Of a stretch of 52,679 nt of DNA, positions 4,984-41,886 are shown in pieces. Origin of the DNA: Betaproteobacteria bacterium RIFCSPLOWO2_12_FULL_62_13 (GTDB taxonomy: Bacteria; Pseudomonadota; Gammaproteobacteria; Burkholderiales; SG8-41); contig MERG01000418.1 of NCBI GenBank assembly GCA_001771985.1, positions 1 through 52,679 on the forward strand, written 5' to 3'. Position 1 is the first letter of the stretch, and every line of letters starts with the position of its first letter. The position numbers and the translations under genes are program-made. The notes under the pieces were generated by a model that was not told the origin of the DNA, made no database searches, and saw nothing but the letters and a program-made list of their open reading frames with translations.

Positions 4984-5673
4984 ATGACAACAATTGCCGC
5001 CAACATGCAAGCTGTGCGCGATCGCATCGCATGTGCCGCGCAGGGCGCCGGGCGGCCGCCGTCCTCTATCGCGCTGATTGCAGTGAGTAAAACCTGGCCC
5101 GCGGAGTACATTGCCGCGGCGCACGCGTGCGGCCAGCGCGCGTTCGCCGAGAGTTACGCACAGGAGGCCATGGAGAAGATGAAGCCGCTCGCGCATCTGC
5201 CGCTCGAGTGGCACTTCATCGGGCCGCTCCAGAGCAACAAGACGCGCCCCATCGCCGAGCATTTCCACTGGGTGCACAGCGTGGAGCGCGAGAAGATCGC
5301 GGCACGACTGAACGAGGCGCGCCCCGAACGCCTGCCGCCGCTTAACGTTTGCATCCAGGTCAACGTAAGCGGCGAGGCAAGCAAGAGCGGGGTGGCGCCC
5401 GGTCAGGAGCCTGTCCTCGCGCGCGCCATCGCGGCCCTGCCGCGCCTCAGGCTGCGCGGATTGATGGCGATCCCCGAGCCGACGCGCGACGCGGGGCTTC
5501 AGCGCCGGCGTTTCGCGTTGCTGCGTGAACTCAAGGATGGACTCGTGGCAGCCGGTTTTGCCGTCGACACGCTCTCGATGGGCATGTCGGACGACCTCGA
5601 AGCGGCGATCCTCGAGGGCGCCACCATGGTGCGCGTCGGCACCGCCATCTTCGGCGAACGGATCAAGAGCTAA
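4984..5673 (+). CDS. yggS: YggS-family pyridoxal-phosphate homeostasis protein
   Basis: LIAVSKTWP (PLP lysine) and HFIGPLQSNK motifs. It sits in the conserved position between pilT and proC. Confidence 0.9.
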   Translation: MTTIAANMQAVRDRIACAAQGAGRPPSSIALIAVSKTWPAEYIAAAHACGQRAFAESYAQEAMEKMKPLAHLPLEWHFIGPLQSNKTRPIAEHFHWVHSVEREKIAARLNEARPERLPPLNVCIQVNVSGEASKSGVAPGQEPVLARAIAALPRLRLRGLMAIPEPTRDAGLQRRRFALLRELKDGLVAAGFAVDTLSMGMSDDLEAAILEGATMVRVGTAIFGERIKS

Positions 5674-5872
5674 CCGCAAAGGCGCGAAGGCGCAAAGAAA
5701 GCCTGGACTGTTATGAGACAAGACTATGGTTTATGCTAATGCACTACGGCCGTTTGCTTGTGAAGACTTCGCGGCCATGGTCACAAGCCCCGCCAACGCC
5801 ATCGCCTCCAATGCAATTGCTCATGTCTGTTTTTCTTTGCGTTTCCTTTGCGCCTTCGCGCCTTTGCGGTTA
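5671..5872. repeat. 27-bp perfect inverted repeat of AAGGCGC-type heptads flanking a 148-nt core
   Basis: TAACCGCAAAGGCGCGAAGGCGCAAAG at 5671-5697 equals the reverse complement of 5846-5872. The left arm begins with the yggS stop codon. The right arm ends 20 nt before the proC ATG. The core is visibly less GC-rich. Confidence 0.8.
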
Positions 5873-7596: not shown

Positions 7597-7685
7597 GTGA
7601 CGGGTGATGAGTGACAAGTGAGCGGTGACGAGTGACGGGTGATGTAGTTACCCATTTCCCATTTCCGATTTCCTATTTACGATTT
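7597..7685. repeat. Two adjacent, different heptad arrays (GTGAYGR x7, then CCNATTT x5)
   Basis: 7597-7645 reads GTGACGG GTGATGA GTGACAA GTGAGCG GTGACGA GTGACGG GTGATGT. 7651-7685 reads CCCATTT CCCATTT CCGATTT CCTATTT ACGATTT. The second array overlaps the last codons and stop codon of the PLD gene. Confidence 0.75.
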
Positions 7686-11740: not shown

Positions 11741-12206
11741 AAGGATGACCACTCAACATCGACACCGCACGATAGAGCTGTTCGGCAAGCACGATGCGCA
11801 CGAGTCCGTGCGGCAAAGTAAGCGGCGAAAGCGACCACACCAGGTCCGCCTGCTCCTTGAGCGCCGCCGCCGTGCCGTCGGCGCCGCCGATGATGAAAGC
11901 CACGTCGCGCCCCGCCCCGCGCCAGCGCGCTATGCTGTCGCAGAGTTGCCGCGTCGCGAAACTCTTGCCGCGCTCGTCGAGCACCACCTTGTAGCAGCCG
12001 CCCGGCAGCGCCGCGGCAATGCGCCTGTGCTCGGCCTGCAACGCACGCTGCACTGCGCCCGCGCCCGCACGGCTGCTGCGGACTTCCGGCTTGATTTCGA
12101 TCAGCGCGAGCCGCGCTTCCCGCGGCAGGCGCCGTGCGTATTCCTCGAAACCTGCCTCGATCCACGCCGGCATCCTGTGGCCGACCGTCACCGCCAGGAA
12201 TTTCAC
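11727..12206 (-). CDS. rlmH: 23S rRNA (pseudouridine1915-N3)-methyltransferase RlmH
   Basis: SPOUT-type sequence KFLAVTVGHRMPAWIEAGFEEYARRL...IIGGADG...LSLSPLTLPH. A GTG start at 12206 overlaps the rsfS stop codon (GTGA). 159 aa. Confidence 0.9.
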   Translation of the reverse strand: MKFLAVTVGHRMPAWIEAGFEEYARRLPREARLALIEIKPEVRSSRAGAGAVQRALQAEHRRIAAALPGGCYKVVLDERGKSFATRQLCDSIARWRGAGRDVAFIIGGADGTAAALKEQADLVWSLSPLTLPHGLVRIVLAEQLYRAVSMLSGHPYHRG

Positions 12207-12571
12207 GCGGCGTGGCGGGCACTGCCCGCACGTCCCCGCGCCCTGCGCGCCGGCGGGGCCCAGAGTTCTTCGAGGTTGTAATATTGGCGGATCGCCGGTT
12301 GCATGATGTGAACCACCACCGCCCCCAGGTCGACCAGTATCCACTCGCCGGCCCGTTCTCCCTCCACACCGTAGATGGTTGCGCCAAGCGCCTTCAGTTT
12401 TTCCTGGACGCTGTTGGAAAGCGCCTTGCTCTGGCGAGTGGAATCGGCGCTTGCGATGATGATTCTGTCAAACAGCGAAGTCATGCGCTTCACGTCCAGG
12501 ACCACGATGTCGCGCGCCTTGATGTCTTCGAGCGCGGCCACCGTGGCGTTCACCAGTTTGCCGATTCTCAT
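12203..12571 (-). CDS. rsfS: Ribosome silencing factor RsfS
   Basis: ALEDIKARDIVVLDV...FDRIIIASADSTRQ...GEWILVDLGAVVVHIM...YNLEELW. ATG 12571 is preceded by AGGAGG. Confidence 0.9.
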   Translation of the reverse strand: MRIGKLVNATVAALEDIKARDIVVLDVKRMTSLFDRIIIASADSTRQSKALSNSVQEKLKALGATIYGVEGERAGEWILVDLGAVVVHIMQPAIRQYYNLEELWAPPARRARGRAGSARHAA

Positions 12572-12623
12572 CAACCTCCTATTGAACCTCGTGCAAATGC
12601 GTGGCAGCGCGTCTGCACCTCGA

Positions 12624-12657
12624 ATCCCCCTTCTCCCCCCGGGAGAAGGGCGGGGAT
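12624..12657. repeat. C-run/G-run REP-like hairpin
   Basis: CCCTTCTCCC (12628-12637) pairs perfectly with GGGAGAAGGG (12641-12650) across a 3-nt loop. It resembles the hairpin at 25941-25980. Confidence 0.5.
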
Positions 12658-12691
12658 AAGGGATGAGCGGCATCGTGCATTCTTACCACGC

Positions 12692-13466: not shown

Positions 13467-14819
13467 CTAGAGAACGAGTCTGCGTATATCCGAAAGCACG
13501 TTGCTCAGATAGGAGATGAAGCGCGCACCCTGAGCGCCGTCGATCACGCGGTGGTCGTAGGACAGCGACAGGGGCAGGATGAGGCGCGGCGTGAATTCCT
13601 TGCCGTTCCACAGCGGCTTCATCAGCGCCTTGCCGACCCCGAGAATCGCCACCTCAGGCGCGTTGATGATCGGCGTAAACATGGTGCCGCCGATGCCCCC
13701 CAGGCTGGAAATCGAAAAACACCCGCCCTGCAGGTCGGCTGGCGAAACCTTGCCGGTACGCATGCGCGCGCTTGCCTCTCCCAGCTCCTTGGCAAGTTCC
13801 AGCAGGCCTTTCTTGTCGACATCGCGGATCACCGGCACTACCAGGCCGTTCGGCGTGTCGACCGCGATGCCGATGTGATAGTACTGCTTCAGAATCAGGC
13901 TCTCGCCGTCCGCTGAAAGCGAAGCGTTGAACTGCGGGTGCTGCTTGAGCGCCACCACTGAAGCCTTCATCACGAAACCGAGCATGGTGAACTTGATGCC
14001 GCTTTTTCTCGCTTCCTCGGCCTGCGTCTTGCGGAACGCTTCGAGCTCCGTAATGTCGGCTTCGTCATGCTGCGTGACATGAGGAATGCTCACCCAGTTG
14101 CGATGGAGGTTGGCGCCGGACAGCTTCTTGATGCGCAACAACGGCTGCATCTGGATCGGCCCGAACTTCGCGAAATCCACCTGGGGCGGCGGCGGCACAC
14201 CGAAGCCGATGCCGCCTTCCGCAGCGCGCGGGCGGGCGAGCTCGGTCTTGATGTAATTCTGAACGTCTTCCTTGAGAATGCGCTCTTTCGCTCCCGTGCC
14301 TTTCACGCGCGAGAGATCCACGCCAAACTCGCGCGCGAGCCGCCGTACCGCGGGACTGGCGTGTGCCTTGCCAAAAGCGGCTTCGTCCACCCCCTCTTGT
14401 CTCCCCCCCTTAGCCAATGGGGGAGATGGGGGCGGTGCGGCTATGGCCGGCGGCGAAGCAACCGCAGGCTGCGGTGCGGCAAATCCCCCCGCTTCACCTC
14501 CCCGGTTGGGTGGGATTCCCGGCGCTGGAGGCGCCGCAACGGTGGTTGCGTTCTGCGCCGAGATAGCGGGAGCGCCATCAGCCGCCTCCAACAACAGCAC
14601 TAAGGTGCCTTCCGAAACCTTGTCGCCGACTTTGACGTTAAGTTCCTTCACCACACCGGCCGCGGGCGAAGGCACTTCCATCGTGGCCTTGTCGGACTCA
14701 AGCGTGATCAGGGAATCCTCTTTGCCGACAGTGTCGCCGGGCCTGACCAGAAGCTCGATCACCGGCACGTTCTTGAACTCGCCGATGTCGGGAACCTTGA
14801 CTTCCACCAAGTTGCTCAT
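13467..14819 (-). CDS. aceF: Pyruvate dehydrogenase E2, dihydrolipoyllysine-residue acetyltransferase (single lipoyl domain)
   Basis: Lipoyl motif [13 protein letters not shown]3-binding segment [16 protein letters not shown], and catalytic C-terminus [12 protein letters not shown]. Confidence 0.9.
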
Positions 14820-14835
14820 TATTGGCTCAACTTAA

Positions 14836-15105
14836 AGGATTGAGGTACTAGGATTGAGGATTGAGTTATTGATTCTTGCATAATGGGTTGACAAATAAGT
14901 GTCGTCCCCGCGAAGGCGGGGACCCATACTGAGCTGCCACGGAGACTGATGCGCCCTATGGATTCCCGTTTCCACGGGAATGACAACATGTCACTATTTC
15001 TGTCAACCACATATGCAAGGGTCAATAGTTCACATGCGCGCTTGACGCTTTTCCCTCAATCCTCGCTTCTCGATCCTCAATCCTCAATCCTAATACCTCA
15101 ATCCT
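14836..15105. repeat. 270-nt nested palindrome between aceE and aceF
   Basis: The outer AGGATTG heptad arms 14836-14865 and 15076-15105 are complementary at 29 of 30 positions. The middle arms 14875-14901 and 14992-15019 match at roughly 22 of 28. The inner unit is the two-hairpin element at 14901-14985. Confidence 0.85.
14901..14985. repeat. Two-hairpin REP-like element (copy 1)
   Basis: GTCCCCGC-GAAG-GCGGGGAC and ATTCCCG-TTTCCA-CGGGAAT hairpins are separated by a spacer. It has the same architecture as the reverse complement of 28541-28611. Confidence 0.7.
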
Positions 15106-15109
15106 GCCG

Positions 15110-17791
<2,682 letters not shown>

Positions 17792-21041: not shown

Positions 21042-21941
21042 ATGGCGCGCCGCTGGTACCCGGAATTCTTTTATCAGCCTTCGCGGCCGCGGGCCGCGCG
21101 CGGCGGCATCAAGGCGCAGACGAAGCGCGGCGGCTTCGGGCAAAGCTGGTGGGCGAAGCGCTGGATCGGCGTGCTGGAGAATTTTGATATCGGCGCACGC
21201 TTGGGTCGCGGTCGTTCCTACGCGCGTTCCGGGCAGGTATTGGACCTCAGGGTGGCCGAGGGCCACGTGACCGCCAGGGTGCAAGGCTCGCGCCCGCAAC
21301 CCTATGGCGTCAGTATCAAGGTCAAAACCCTCACGAAGGGCCACTGGGAAAAGCTTGCCGGTGCCCTGGGCAACCAGGCCATTTTTGCCGCCAAGCTCCT
21401 CACCGGAGAAATGCCCGAAAACATCGAAGAGGCGTTCAAGACGGCCGGATTGTCGCTCTTTCCGGAGAAAAGCCGCGACCTTGAAACCGACTGCACGTGC
21501 CCCGATTGGTCCAACCCCTGCAAGCACATCGCCGCGGTCTACTACCTTCTCGGCGAGGAATTCGACCACGATCCGTTCCTGATTTTCAAGCTGCGTGGCA
21601 TGGACCGCAAGCGGTTCGTCGAACTGCTTGGTGCAGGAGGCGCTAAGCCGCCGAAGAAAACGCGCGTACCGGAAGCGCCATCGTCTGTGCCGTTATCCGC
21701 GGAACCCGAAGCGTTCTGGGGCCTTGCCGCCTCAACCGATTTCGACTTGGGCGAGGTGTCCATACCGCCCGTTTCCGCAACGCTCGTGAAGCGTCTCGGT
21801 AACTTCCCGCTGTGGCGCGCCGAAGAGGGCCTGCTGCAAGCGCTGCAACCTTTATACGCCGCCGCGGCGCCGGCGGGGCTGAAGGTGGTTTTGGGAGAAC
21901 CGCCGCAACGCGAAGCAGGTAGCCCGGATGGAATGAAATGA
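21042..21941 (+). CDS. SWIM zinc-finger protein (usual partner of the SNF2 helicase)
   Basis: CTCPDWSNPCKHIAAVYY is a CxC..CxH SWIM motif. ATG 21042 lies 18 nt after the helicase stop codon. The last codons run into the REP at 21919. Confidence 0.85.
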   Translation: MARRWYPEFFYQPSRPRAARGGIKAQTKRGGFGQSWWAKRWIGVLENFDIGARLGRGRSYARSGQVLDLRVAEGHVTARVQGSRPQPYGVSIKVKTLTKGHWEKLAGALGNQAIFAAKLLTGEMPENIEEAFKTAGLSLFPEKSRDLETDCTCPDWSNPCKHIAAVYYLLGEEFDHDPFLIFKLRGMDRKRFVELLGAGGAKPPKKTRVPEAPSSVPLSAEPEAFWGLAASTDFDLGEVSIPPVSATLVKRLGNFPLWRAEEGLLQALQPLYAAAAPAGLKVVLGEPPQREAGSPDGMK

Positions 21942-21989
21942 AATCCGGGGAACGTGATCCCGGAATTCGCTGCGCTTCTTCCGGGCTAC
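21919..21989. repeat. REP-like element, GTAGCCCGGAT...ATCCGGGG...CCGGGCTAC type (full copy)
   Basis: GTAGCCCGGA (21919-21928) pairs with TCCGGGCTAC (21980-21989). There is an inner hairpin CCCGGAT..ATCCGGG. The first 33 nt recur at 41854-41886 with 2 mismatches. Confidence 0.65.
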
Positions 21990-26723: not shown

Positions 26724-29700
26724 CTACATGTTGCGGCGGTACTGGCCGCCCACTTCGAACAACGCCTGCGTGATCTGACCGAGCGAGGCAACGCGCACCG
26801 TGTTCATCAGTTCCGCAAACACGTTGCCCCCGGCAAGCGCGACCTGCTGCAGGCTCTGGAGCGCCGCTGGCGCCGCCTGCTTGTGGCACGCCTGGAATTC
26901 CCCCAGGCGCCTGATCTGGACTTGTTTTTCTTCCTCGGTCGAGCGGGCGAGCTGGATCGTATCGCTCGCCGCCACCGGGTCCGGATTAAGGAAGGTGTTC
27001 ACACCGACGATCGGCAGCCGCCCGTCGTGCTTGAGGGTTTCGTAGTAGAGCGATTCTTCCTGGATCCTGCCGCGCTGGTAGCCGGTCTCCATTGCGCCCA
27101 GCACGCCGCCGCGCTCGGCAATGCGCTCGAACTCCTTGAGCACCGCCTCTTCGACCAGCGCTGTAAGCTCCTCGATGATGAACGAGCCCTGGTTCGGGTT
27201 TTCGTTCCTGGCAAGGCCCCACTCGCGGTTGATGATGAGCTGGATCGCCATGGCGCGCCTGACCGACTCTTCGGTAGGCGTGGTGATCGCCTCGTCGTAG
27301 GCATTGGTGTGCTGGCTGTTGCAGTTGTCGTAGGCGCCGGTCAGCGCCTGCAGCGTGGTGCGGATATCGTTGAAGTCCATTTCCTGCGCGTGAAGCGAAC
27401 GGCCCGAGGTCTGCGTGTGATACTTGAGCTTTTGCGAGCGCTCGTTGGCTCCGTGGTAGTCGCGCATCGCGATCGCCCAGATCCGACGCGCCACGCGTCC
27501 CAGCACCGAGTATTCGGCGTCCATCCCGTTACTGAAGAAGAACGAAAGGTTGGGTGCGAAGTCGTCGATGTGCATGCCGCGCGCGAGGTACGACTCGACG
27601 TAGGTGAAACCGTTGGCGAGCGTGAAAGCAAGCTGCGAAATCGGGTTCGCCCCGGCTTCCGCGATGTGGTAGCCGGATATCGACGCCGAGTAGAAGTTCC
27701 TGACCTCGTTGTGAACGAAGAACTCCTGGATATCGCCCATCATCTTCAACGCGAACTCGGTCGAGAAGATGCAGGTATTCTGGCCCTGGTCCTCCTTCAG
27801 GATGTCGGCCTGCACCGTGCCGCGCACCGTGGCGAGCGTCCATTCCCGGATTTTCTGCGCCTCGTCCTCGGTCGCTTCGCGCCCGTTATCGCGGCGGAAC
27901 GTGTCGATCTGCTGGTCGATTGCGGTATTGAGGAACATCGCCAGGATGGTCGGCGCCGGGCCGTTGATCGTCATCGACACCGAGGTCATCGGATGGCACA
28001 GGTCGAAGCCCTCGTAGAGCGCCTTCATGTCCTCGAGCGTGGCGATCGAGACGCCGGAGTTGCCGATCTTGCCGTAGATGTCAGGCCGCTCGTCCGGATC
28101 GCAGCCGTAGAGCGTGACCGAATCGAACGCGGTGGAGAGCCGCTTCGCCTCGGAATCGCGCGACAGATACTTGAAGCGGCGATTGGTGCGGAACGGATCA
28201 CCCTCGCCCGCGAACATCCGCGTGGGATCTTCGCTCTCGCGTTTGAAGGCGAACACGCCGGCGGTGAACGGGAATGACCCGGGCACGTTTTCCAGCAGAA
28301 GCCACTTCACGATTTCGCCCTCGTCTTCGTAGCGCGGCAGCGCGACTTTGGGAATCCTGGTTCCCGACAGCGTGGCGTGGCCTAGCCGCGTGCGGATCTC
28401 ACGGCCGCGGATTTTCACAACGTACTCGTCGCCGGCGTAGGTCGCGCGCGTACGCGGCCACAGCTCGAGCAGTTTCCTGGAGCGTGCGTCGAGCGCGGCA
28501 TCGCGCGCGGCAATGAGTGCGTCGAGCTCTGCCGCAATCTTGTCAGTCCCGTGTATAGGGGAATCCAACGGGTCCTCCGCATTGCCGGATCCCCGCCTGC
28601 GCGGGGATGACGGCGCTTCGAGCAACATGTTCTTCGCTGCCGTCAGTTGCTGGCGCTCGCGCGCAATCCGCGCCTGGTGGCCGGCCTTCGCATGATAGGT
28701 GCGCACCGTTTCGGCGATCTCGGCAAGATAGCGCGTGCGCGCCGGCGGCACGATTTGTGTAGTCGCGCTCGAGCACCTGACCGCAACCGGAGCAAGCGCG
28801 CCCGGCGTGAGCTTGAGGCCGCGCGCAGCGAGCGTGACGCCGATTGCCTGGTAGAGCGCGGTGACGCCGTCGTCATTGAAGCGCGCTGCGATGGTGCCGA
28901 ACACCGGCATGTCTTCGGGCGGCTCGCGGAATGCCTTGCGGTTGCGCTGTACCTGCTTGCGCACGTCGCGAAGCGCGTCCTGCGCGCCTTTGCGATCGAA
29001 CTTGTTGATCGCCACAAACTGCGCGAAATCGAGCATGTCGATCTTTTCGAGCTGGCTTGCGGCGCCATACTCGGGCGTCATGACATAGAGCGCCACATCG
29101 ACCAGCGGCATGATCGCGGCATCGCCCTGGCCAATCCCCGGAGTCTCGATCATGACCAGATCAAAGCCCGCGATCTTGCACGCGGCGATCACCTCCGGCA
29201 GGCACGGCGACATCCCGCCGCCGCCGGCGCGGGTCGCGAGTGAGCGCATGTAGATCGAGGGGCTGGCGATTGCGTTCATGCGGATGCGGTCGCCGAGCAG
29301 CGCGCCGCCACTCTTGCGCCGTGACGGGTCGACAGCAATCAGCGCAATCCGGAGGCTGTCGTGCTGGTCGAACCGGAAGCGGCGCACCAGCTCATCGGTG
29401 AGCGAGGACTTGCCGGAACCGCCGGTGCCGGTGATGCCGAGCACCGGCACGTTCGTGATGCGGGCTGCGCGCGCGAGCAGCTCCTGGCGCAGACCCTTTT
29501 CGCACTGCGCGTTCTCGAGCGTGGTAATGAACGCCGCAAGCTGGCGGCGCTCCCCGCTTGCGATGCCGTCGAGGCTCACCGGCACGTGCCGGGCGGGATC
29601 GAAGTCGCACACTGCAAGCATGTCGTCGATCATGCCTTGCAGCCCCATGCGCGCGCCGTCTTCCGGTGAATAGAGGCGCGCAATGCCGTAGGCGTGAAGC

Positions 29701-30053
29701 TCCGCCATTTCGGAGGGCACGATCACGCCGCCGCCGCCGCCGAACACCTTGATGTGGGCGCCGCCGCGTTCGCGCAGCAGGTCGATCATGTATTTGAAAA
29801 ATTCGACATGGCCGCCCTGGTAGGAGGAAACCGCGATGCCCTGCACGTCCTCGTCGAGCGCGGCGGTGACGATCTCCTCGACCGAACGGTTGTGGCCGAG
29901 GTGAATGACCTCGGCGCCGCTTGCCTGCACGATGCGGCGCACAATGTTGATCGAGGCGTCGTGCCCGTCGAACAGGCTCGCCGCGGTAATGAAGCGGATC
30001 TTGTGCGTGGCCTGATCGGCCTTGCCTGCCGCCTGCACGCTCAAATCGGTCAC
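26724..30053 (-). CDS. icmF: Fused isobutyryl-CoA mutase IcmF (B12 domain + MeaB-like GTPase + mutase domain)
   Basis: B12 motif [17 protein letters not shown]-loop [17 protein letters not shown], and a long C-terminal methylmalonyl-CoA-mutase-like substrate domain. 1109 aa. Confidence 0.92.
28541..28611. repeat. Two-hairpin REP-like element (copy 2) embedded in frame in icmF
   Basis: The reverse complement is GTCATCCCCGCGCAGGCGGGGATCC..TGGATTCCCCTATACACGGGACTGACA. It aligns end to end with 14901-14985 apart from a shorter spacer. It is translated as [23 protein letters not shown]. Confidence 0.7.
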
Positions 30054-41853: not shown

Positions 41854-41886
41854 GTAGCCCGGATAGAATGACATGAAATCCGGGGA
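41854..41886. repeat. REP-like element, GTAGCCCGGAT type (left half only)
   Basis: GTAGCCCGGATAGAATGACATGAAATCCGGGGA matches 21919-21951 with 2 mismatches. The closing CCGGGCTAC arm is absent. Confidence 0.6.

Follow-up and report, generated by a model that had tools for sequence, protein, structure and literature searches.

An in-frame dimer of CGTC-tagged palindromic repeats in the interdomain linker of IcmF from an uncultured Burkholderiales bacterium

Positions 1 to 52,679 of contig MERG01000418.1 from Betaproteobacteria bacterium RIFCSPLOWO2_12_FULL_62_13 (assembly GCA_001771985.1) were analysed, and this whole stretch is referred to below as the window. Its icmF gene, which encodes a fused isobutyryl-CoA mutase/GTPase, contains a short element made of two hairpin units in head-to-head orientation. 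The element is translated through without a stop codon as 23 residues of the enzyme, S482-D504. A second head-to-head doublet of the same family lies between two genes elsewhere in the window (Table 1). Judged by its sequence, the in-gene element is a head-to-head dimer of CGTC-tagged repetitive extragenic palindromic (REP) units, the group that includes the dRS3/NTS repeats and the Ssn-related motif (SRM), with the Rickettsia palindromic element (RPE) RPE-6 in the same superfamily.

Table 1. Coordinates of the icmF gene, the palindromic repeats of the window, and the GIY-YIG genes with adjoining units on metagenome contigs
Feature	Sequence	Coordinates	Strand	Remarks
icmF, fused isobutyryl-CoA mutase/GTPase	window	26724..30053	(-)	intact open reading frame (ORF), 1109 residues; host of the in-gene element
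In-gene element	window	28541..28612	(-)	72 nt including the CGTC tag; head-to-head pair of hairpin units
Left unit with CGTC tag, CGTCATCCCCGCGCAGGCGGGGATCCGG	window	28585..28612	(-)	perfect 8-bp stem, 4-nt loop; encodes (P481)S482-G490
Left unit without the C of the tag, GTCATCCCCGCGCAGGCGGGGATCC	window	28587..28611	(-)	25 nt
Spacer, CAATGCGGAGGACCCGT	window	28568..28584	(-)	17 nt; unconserved between copies, differs in every allele
Right unit, inverted orientation, TGGATTCCCCTATACACGGGACTGACA	window	28541..28567	(-)	encodes L496-D504; partly decayed
Intergenic head-to-head doublet, CGTC family	window	14901..14985	(+)	between ORFs 13467-14819 (-) and 15110-17791 (-); reads GTCGTCCCCGCGAAGGCGGGGACCC-(33 nt)-TGGATTCCCGTTTCCACGGGAATGACA
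Near-perfect palindrome, ~270 nt	window	14836..15105		inverted repeat I5, 30-nt arms 97% complementary
Single type C unit, intergenic	window	12620..12665		hairpin CCCTTCTCCC..GGGAGAAGGG (also written CCCTTCTCCCCCCGGGAGAAGGG) and tail GGGGATAAGGG
GIY-YIG gene and units	L189	1279-1697		unit on both sides of the gene
GIY-YIG gene and unit	L147	1141-1656		unit 8 nt from the ORF
GIY-YIG gene and unit	L208	3806-4154		unit 54 nt from the ORF

The left unit of the in-gene element folds into a hairpin that was stable in the minimum-free-energy and centroid folds alike, and the right unit keeps about 6 of its 8 stem pairs. Both window copies share the stem subtype TCCCCGCG..CGCGGGGA. Their left units are identical at 22 of 25 positions (28587-28611 (-) against 14901-14925 (+)) and their right units at 23 of 27 (28541-28567 (-) against 14959-14985 (+)). 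The spacers between the 25-nt and 27-nt units, 19 nt in the gene and 33 nt in the intergenic copy, are unrelated in sequence. Degenerate patterns for the two units, with 3 mismatches allowed, each matched just these two copies in the 52,679 nt, where 0.00 and 0.01 matches were expected (100 shuffles). As the patterns were derived from the window copies themselves, outside support for the match comes from the published SRM pattern and from metagenomes, where the 25-mer left-unit pattern was present in at least 120 contigs. An earlier note on this DNA had described a two-hairpin element at 28541-28611 that resembles 14901-14985 with a shorter spacer. The resemblance withstood the comparison with shuffled sequence, and the bound at 28541 stood; the outer end did not, as the CGTC tag carries it one base further, to 28612. 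No target-site duplication, sought as a flanking direct repeat, was found at either window copy or at 12 other in-gene alleles, and no Rfam family matched anywhere in the window.

The query IcmF contains a B12-binding domain (residues 20-120), a MeaB domain (172-404), and an MM_CoA_mutase domain (575-1102) according to Pfam, and it aligns with the IcmF of Cupriavidus metallidurans (PDB 4xc6) over residues 15-1109 at 1749 bits. In this alignment, the query exceeds 4xc6 by 9 + 14 = 23 residues precisely at the element, where the crystallised sequence has only a short segment or turn, QGAGHE. The crystallised C. metallidurans enzyme is 1093 residues long, and its fragment of linker and substrate-binding domain begins at residue 443 (PMC10481361). 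An AlphaFold2 model of the query, computed from a 97-sequence alignment with a mean predicted local distance difference test score (pLDDT) of 74.7, has a helix at 442-479, a coil at 480-501 with pLDDT below 50 at 485-499, and a second helix at 502-520. Because of this helix-coil-helix arrangement with its low-pLDDT coil, the insert is predicted to cap a helical hairpin of the interdomain linker as a disordered segment. These results bear out the uninterrupted translation at about residues 481-505 and the position between the MeaB-like GTPase and the mutase domain that the earlier note had given, and the model agrees with its suggestion that the insert is a loop.

CGTC-tagged REPs were defined by Di Nocera, De Gregorio, and Rocco in 2013, and head-to-head dimers predominate among them; the CGTC-1 elements of Neisseria are dRS3, and in Rickettsia conorii RPE-6 is CGTC-1 and RPE-4 is CGTC-4 (PMC3733652). 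Chenal et al. (2025) gave dRS3 as ATTCCC-N8-GGGAAT, extended it to the 28-nt NTS CGTCATTCCCGCGMAVGCGGGAATCYRG, and defined the SRM as HGTCWYN(0-2)YYVSBRHN(0-5)WNVSBRGN(0-2)RNCYNB (PMC11893778). Of the 28 positions of the NTS, the in-gene left unit agrees with 26, and the other two form one compensatory stem pair, T.A to C.G. The unit exceeds the one-mismatch criterion of the NTS authors yet keeps the structure, and it alone in the window fits the SRM pattern, for which 0.31 matches were expected. One mismatch separates the in-gene right unit from the dRS3 form, and this unit fails the SRM pattern. In the intergenic copy, the right unit is an exact dRS3-type ATTCCC-N8-GGGAAT, and the left unit, which starts TGTCGTC and thus contains CGTC, does not fit the SRM pattern. 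By these motifs, the element appears to be a subtype related to the dRS3/NTS of Neisseria and not the Neisseria element itself.

From the metagenome contigs carrying the left-unit pattern (at least 120), 87 elements on 80 contigs were sampled. Head-to-head doublets, counted where an inverted partner lay within 130 nt, made up 38 of the 87 and were 59-134 nt long. C preceded GTC in 47 of 87 copies, and G followed the partner's GAC in 23 of 38. In a set of 21 in-gene units, the tag read CGTC in 15 and TGTC in 4, and it was mutated in L081_R and L089_L. We assign the element to this family because the window copies match each other, the SRM, and the NTS, and because the sampled copies behave as described for CGTC REPs. 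At one metagenome locus (L092, 6797-7019), five units of the type A defined below are clustered between genes, about 3 kb upstream of an icmF that carries a type A doublet; this resembles the clustering described for Neisseria.

The protein associated with the CGTC/SRM family, Ssn, is a single-strand DNA nuclease that cuts beside the hairpin, and SsnA, a GIY-YIG nuclease of 94 residues, cuts the NTS as single-stranded DNA (PMC11893778). In the Ssn system, a single-domain GIY-YIG gene (cd10448) of the same genome typically has the motif on its flanks. Single-domain GIY-YIG genes encoding about 95 residues were found in 5 of 120 unit-carrying contigs (674 kb; contigs among the matches listed). 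The four proteins tested matched Pfam PF01541 with E-values of 1e-13 to 1e-19. Units adjoin the gene at the three loci given in Table 1, and such unit-flanked genes appear to be the NTS-ssnA-NTS arrangement of PMC11893778. Upstream, the stop-free stretch of the GIY-YIG ORF extends into a unit and hence reads VIPAKAGIH or PAPAFAGT.

Rickettsia palindromic elements (Ogata et al. 2000) are reportedly palindromic repeats that lie in frame within genes of functional proteins, and RPE-1, the classic coding RPE, is about 100-150 nt long and specific to Rickettsia. The in-gene element is like them in being a palindromic repeat in frame in the gene of a functional protein and tolerated as an extra loop: the ORF of 1109 residues is intact, the insert stands out as a 23-residue gap against 4xc6, and 37 homologues are empty at the site. 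The encoded peptides are also alike, as R. conorii has SFPRKRES...LDSRFRGND in the same frame as SSPRRRGS...LDSPIHGTD here and SSPRKRGSS...LDSRLRGNDE in relatives. The earlier note had drawn the Rickettsia parallel as an analogy. It appears to be more than that, with RPE-6 and dRS3 in one CGTC family, and the link rests on the identification of RPE-6 as CGTC-1 and on encoded peptides that are nearly identical (PMC3733652, Additional file 3). The two cases differ in that Rickettsia has many genes each occupied once, whereas here one IcmF site is occupied by several families in many lineages.

[quoted passage not shown] MITEs such as Correia/NEMIS, ERIC, and RUP resemble the present element in being small, non-coding, palindromic, dispersed, and sometimes co-transcribed or located within ORFs. 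CGTC units, in contrast, are autonomous hairpins without a flanking duplication, and the MITE class was rejected because neither window copy has a target-site duplication. In REPIN-RAYT systems, two inverted REP units form a doublet that is the unit of the population (Bertels and Rainey 2011; PMC3116915). The two inverted units seen here have a REPIN-like architecture, for which the REPIN/RAYT class was considered first. It was rejected because REPINs and RAYT-associated REPs are tagged GTAG and not CGTC, and because a weak screen found no RAYT (IS200/IS605-like) gene in the window or the icmF loci; on related contigs, the associated gene is that of a GIY-YIG nuclease. With CGTC-1 REPs, the element shares a GC-rich hairpin of 20-30 nt that is tagged CGTC and has the core ATYCC..GGRAT, a predominance of head-to-head dimers whose spacers vary, intergenic dispersal, small GIY-YIG genes flanked by units on other contigs, and occasional in-gene dimers encoding 20-30 residues. 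It differs from CGTC-1/NTS in its stem pair (C.G here, T.A in Neisseria), in its host, an uncultured Burkholderiales, and in the occupied gene, as IcmF is not a published host.

In-frame CGTC dimers that encode the same peptide are known already from other genes, those of free-living bacteria among them. The R. conorii dimers of Additional file 3 read SFLRKQES..LDSRFRGND and SFPRKRES..LDSRFRGND, and a dimer in dnaE2 of Sphingomonas wittichii reads SFPRKRES..VDSRFREND (PMC3733652). Further in-frame cases come from S. alaskensis, E. litoralis, R. palustris, and C. burnetii, with all three reading frames in use, and in-frame CGTC and GTAG REPs are recorded for Sphingomonas wittichii, Sphingopyxis alaskensis, Erythrobacter litoralis, Rhodopseudomonas palustris, Thauera, and others (PMC3733652). 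With several free-living bacteria listed there, the view that such an insertion is unusual for a free-living genome does not hold. No mutase is among the hosts in Additional file 3 of PMC3733652. New here are IcmF as a host gene and the density of evidence for turnover, unusually fast, of one site by two unrelated families, the CGTC family with its stem subtypes A and B and the type C repeat described below. A search of a 5.8-billion-protein database with a doubled 50-residue insert consensus returned 2 candidates and is uninformative on the frequency of the peptide.

The best 120 homologues of the query IcmF (72-100% identity), nearly all from metagenome-assembled genomes of uncultured Burkholderiales/Betaproteobacteria, were collected and gave, with the query, a set of 121 sequences. 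Allele states were read from the alignment as the region between the two linker helices. A translated CGTC dimer occupies the site in 53 of the 121, either as type A (SSPRKRGSS..LDSRLRGNDE) or as type B (SSRRKPGSS..LDSGVRRNDE). The site is empty in 37, which have a short 9-residue turn such as LKAGKEAR or LAAAGKPAG. Another 17 carry type C, an unrelated Pro/Gly-rich insert (e.g., PLPLSRGERGS..LPPGEGPGMRE), three have nested mixtures of B and C, and the inserts of the remaining 11 are of other kinds or decayed. The type C sequence is a palindromic repeat in its own right, found dispersed, with a hairpin CCCTCTCCC..GGGAGAGGG and a tail GGGGTGAGGG, and intergenic copies of it also occur in unrelated genomes (L006 and L046).

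The CGTC family is present at the site in the nearest relatives of the query. Homologue P0004 (80% identity to the query) has a CGTC insert whose 25-nt left unit is identical to that of the query, and in P0002 (87% identity) the left unit is of type B and a nested repeat accompanies it; the junction and the frame of both inserts are those of the query. This distribution contradicts the earlier proposal of a lineage-specific insertion. The nested repeat of P0002 (L086, 1903-1996) is a type C-like hairpin within the spacer of the type B doublet, and the nested cassette (..PPSYLPPQAGEGD.G.RRNDE) is common to the divergent backbones P0002 and P0012. At L091 (1949-2105, P0036), two CGTC doublets stand in tandem and form a 61-residue loop. 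Distant IcmFs from named genera lack these peptides, L049 excepted, and the empty state is therefore ancestral. IcmF loci among the matches listed in the contig scan, at 73% identity or less, are almost all empty at the site. Two further linkers, those of L003 and P0092 in another lineage, carry another, non-palindromic-looking insert in the same loop (..AGDYSKQLKEKGGVADTEFAQQLKE.. and ..MAGYEKPLLKSGHVADSEAATQLDGAIH.., respectively). The empty loop of L088, GCGGGCAAACCCGC, raised the idea of a candidate hairpin that might attract repeats.

On a neighbour-joining tree made with the linker left out and without support values, the allele states are interleaved. Among the five states, Fitch parsimony requires at least 35 changes, where shuffled labels need 58 on average; between empty and filled it requires 15, against 32 for shuffled labels. 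The changes are fewer than in shuffled data yet many, and therefore both inheritance within clades and frequent change are needed. Some relatives that differ in state are very similar elsewhere. P0007 (filled) and P0023 (empty) share 95.9% of protein residues outside the linker and 95.8% of nucleotides; the values are 98.2% and 97.6% for P0014 (type B) and P0032 (type C), and 95.2% and 91.4% for P0045 (type B) and P0081 (type C).

Simple insertion or excision between close filled and empty alleles was rejected, as the 27-nt empty loop is replaced by the element together with about 12 nt of different flank on each side. At L083/L084, the overall rate is 0.45 mismatches per 30 nt, but the first 60 nt downstream of the insert contain 20. 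Mismatches are raised over about 330 nt upstream of the insert at L089/L090, and within about 30 nt alone at L081/L082. The insert marks one border of the divergent patch in two pairs. The divergent patches, the non-clean indels, and the shared nested cassette suggest that the loop is moved as a cassette by short-patch homologous recombination, and we infer that recombination, not transposition, accounts for most of the state switches.

Type A and B alleles compared as DNA have one frame and the left junction ..CC|G TCA TCC C.., except L049, which has two residues instead of five between the conserved Met and the element; the junction of the first copy at L091 reads GT|G TCA TCC. The GTC-to-GAC length is 3n+1 in all eight single in-gene doublets (67, 67, 67, 70, 70, 73, 79, and 94 nt), and therefore the tag-to-tag length is a multiple of three. 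Genomic doublets from the metagenomes have no such length-class bias (17/11/10).

The units are more similar between alleles than the genes around them. Fourfold-degenerate sites are 46-73% identical between host genes, and the 25-nt units are mostly 76-100% identical; the left units of the query and P0004 are identical although the two genes agree at 53% of fourfold sites. Across the 21 in-gene units, 90.5% of stem cells are paired, compared with 81.8% for shuffled partners and 17-50% when the register is slid by 1-3 columns. Two stem positions have compensatory double changes (C.G in 8 units against U.A in 7; G.C in 11 against C.G in 8), and the stem covariation score was reached by 0 of 500 shuffles. 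With these stem changes, the peptide alternates between Pro and Arg (SPRKRGS against SRRKPGS). Paired stems are thus kept while the peptide flips, and therefore it is the DNA palindrome that is conserved, not the protein sequence. Such conservation is expected if the copies stem from, or are renewed by, a genomic repeat pool that its own partner protein keeps uniform, and it does not require a function in IcmF. Several copies are decaying (the right units of the query and of L085, and the two units of L089). The peptide occurs without the palindrome only in these visibly decayed copies, and the refuting condition named in the earlier note therefore does not overturn a repeat origin. Nothing indicates that the loop serves a function by itself.

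Drawing on the family identity, the in-frame location, the disordered-loop prediction, the distribution among homologues, the hairpin-preserving covariation, and the local divergent patches, we favour the following account as a whole, with a probability of roughly 0.8: the element is a tolerated in-frame CGTC dimer and an allele of an old polymorphism that has been reshuffled largely by recombination, with some insertions in addition. The original insertion would have come from the genome's own repeat pool through the copying mechanism of the family. It would have placed the element in the turn between the two long linker helices, where translation would give a hydrophilic, disordered 23-residue loop that the enzyme tolerates. 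Two properties let the element be translated through, a tag-to-tag length divisible by three and a frame in use that is free of stops. The query copy would be one allele of an old polymorphism widely shared in uncultured Burkholderiales and not a recent acquisition. Between close relatives, the loop would have moved as a cassette by short-patch homologous recombination, with separate insertions besides. The query copy, its left unit intact and its right unit decayed, would now be inherited passively.

Several points weigh against this account. The tree is a neighbour-joining tree without support values, and the count of 35 changes may be inflated. Allele DNA was compared for 13 homologues only (12 and L049). 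All comparison sequences are metagenome assemblies, in which strain chimeras could mimic mosaic tracts. The single reading frame of all 53 CGTC-type alleles and the left junction CC|GTCATCC shared by the DNA alleles, L049 excepted, fit one ancient insertion and site-specific targeting alike. A clean empty target site for the query allele was not recovered, as the flanks differ too. Just two CGTC doublets were seen in the 52.7-kb window. A weak screen with a consensus and a regular expression found no Ssn-like or RAYT-like gene in the window or the icmF loci, which are a fraction of each genome; the same consensus does recover the GIY-YIG genes of the metagenome loci.

The loop could also be a preferred landing site, in which case CGTC dimers and type C repeats would have inserted there many times independently, and the shared state would stem from this and not from descent and recombination. 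Some independent insertions appear to have occurred, as type C lies at three nucleotide positions (L084, L090, and nested in L086/P0012) and the left junction of L049 is different. The flank residues ahead of the element range from 1 to 10 among alleles, and the doubled insert of L091 would suit repeated targeting as well. Other proteins behave similarly: dnaE2 and TruB are each REP-occupied in several species, with TruB inserts at residues 169-177 in S. alaskensis and 164-190 in E. litoralis (PMC3733652). Our random sample of 87 copies contributed a further TruB, that of L133 (VFQO010006810.1), which has a 23-residue in-frame CGTC doublet between TruB_N (48-178) and TruB_C_2 (216-274); the doublet includes the unit 1133-1157, read in the antisense frame. 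TruB looks like a second recurrently occupied protein. Since TruB and dnaE2 are hit in several species and L133 adds to them, recurrent occupation of a permissive interdomain loop is not unique to IcmF. For the IcmF site itself, however, one frame in 53 alleles and a shared junction are explained more simply by descent, and the states carry phylogenetic signal (35 steps against 58 when shuffled). The closest switches bring divergent flanking patches, a mark of imported DNA and not of clean insertion, and neither a target motif nor a target-site duplication is visible. We therefore consider a targeted site unlikely as the general explanation.

A bolder form of this idea is doubtful. It would make the IcmF loop a true hot spot, at which hairpins recognised by Ssn serve as recombination breakpoints, drive cassette-like loop exchange from lineage to lineage, and attract further palindromic repeats. 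If so, the in-gene NTS-like units would act within a gene as dRS3/NTS are proposed to act around Neisseria genes.

It is improbable that the element has been domesticated, that is, kept as a flexible protein linker or as a DNA or RNA signal such as an mRNA hairpin with an effect on translation or an Ssn target aiding allele exchange. The units are more conserved than synonymous sites, base pairing is kept through compensatory changes, and one edge of the divergent patch lies at the insert in two pairs, all of which would suit a retained signal. In Neisseria, the NTS together with Ssn modulates how transforming DNA is integrated, and genes next to dRS3 show higher diversity (PMC11893778). However, the insert is missing from 37 of the 121 homologues, from the crystallised enzyme, and from all distant IcmFs, L049 excepted; the copies of the query (right unit), L085, and L089 are decaying; and the peptide is radically different between subtypes. 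Folding of the insert mRNA was not exceptional against shuffles (z = -1.13), and neither a terminator-like site nor a promoter was found inside the insert. Conservation above the neutral level is also expected of young copies or of copies refreshed from a pool.

A recent jump into icmF within the query's own lineage, from a copy like that at 14901-14985, would account for the stem subtype common to the two window copies and for the perfect left hairpin. We regard it as very improbable, as P0004 with its identical left unit and P0002 are already filled at the same junction and in the same frame, the decay of the right unit takes time, and the filled CGTC state is common to 53 of the 121. Coincidence in an ordinary variable linker with palindromic GC-rich codons (IcmF lengths do vary, from 1084 to 1146 residues among homologues), or misassembly of the contig at a repeat, can be dismissed, as both ends match the intergenic copy and the published motif, the units recur in intergenic DNA of many genomes and their stems covary, the protein P0001 on an independently stored ENA contig is 100% identical to the query, and units of 25-28 nt are shorter than typical assembly k-mers.

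The IcmF insert is a clean example of a non-coding palindromic repeat turned into part of a protein, outside the intracellular bacteria best known for this effect. Its structural placement is good, as it caps a hairpin of helices in an enzyme whose structures have been solved. The empty, filled, swapped, doubled, and nested loops of close relatives form a natural experiment on the rates of repeat gain, decay, and exchange, and the site could be used to test whether recombination outside Neisseria, too, is promoted by the recently discovered Ssn nucleases together with the hairpins that they target. In annotation work, peptides like SSPRKRGS...LDSRLRGND in a conserved protein should be read as translated repeats and not as a new domain.

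Other palindromic and tandem repeats lie between the genes of the window. The intergenic CGTC doublet, which folds as single-stranded DNA with z = -3.98, forms the tip of the near-perfect palindrome listed in Table 1. The outer arms of this palindrome are heptamer arrays (GGATTGA/GATTGAG), and as single-stranded DNA it reaches -69.2 kcal/mol (z = -11.2). Lying between two genes on the same strand, the palindrome could be a regulatory region prone to cruciform formation or a composite element of larger size. Short-period tandem arrays occur in the intergenic stretches 315-420, 2450-2569, and 7597-7644, with 7-mers (GTGACGG/GTCACGA) and 8-mers (TCGGGAGA), and a second 30-nt inverted repeat, 97% complementary, lies at 5671-5700 and 5843-5872 with its arms 142 nt apart. 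These arrays and the inverted repeat at 5671-5872 resemble the heptamer arms at the 14.9-kb doublet and may form one feature class with them. The single type C unit sits between nadD-like and rsfS-like genes, and a long ORF call at 12203-12673 (-) crosses it with an N-terminal extension that is probably spurious. A 33-nt repeat is present in two copies, 94% identical, at 21919-21951 and 41854-41886; GTAG is followed in it by a CCCGGAT..ATCCGGG hairpin, and it may be a GTAG-tagged REP of the RAYT-associated class. If this is the case, the genome holds GTAG, CGTC, and type C palindromic families together.

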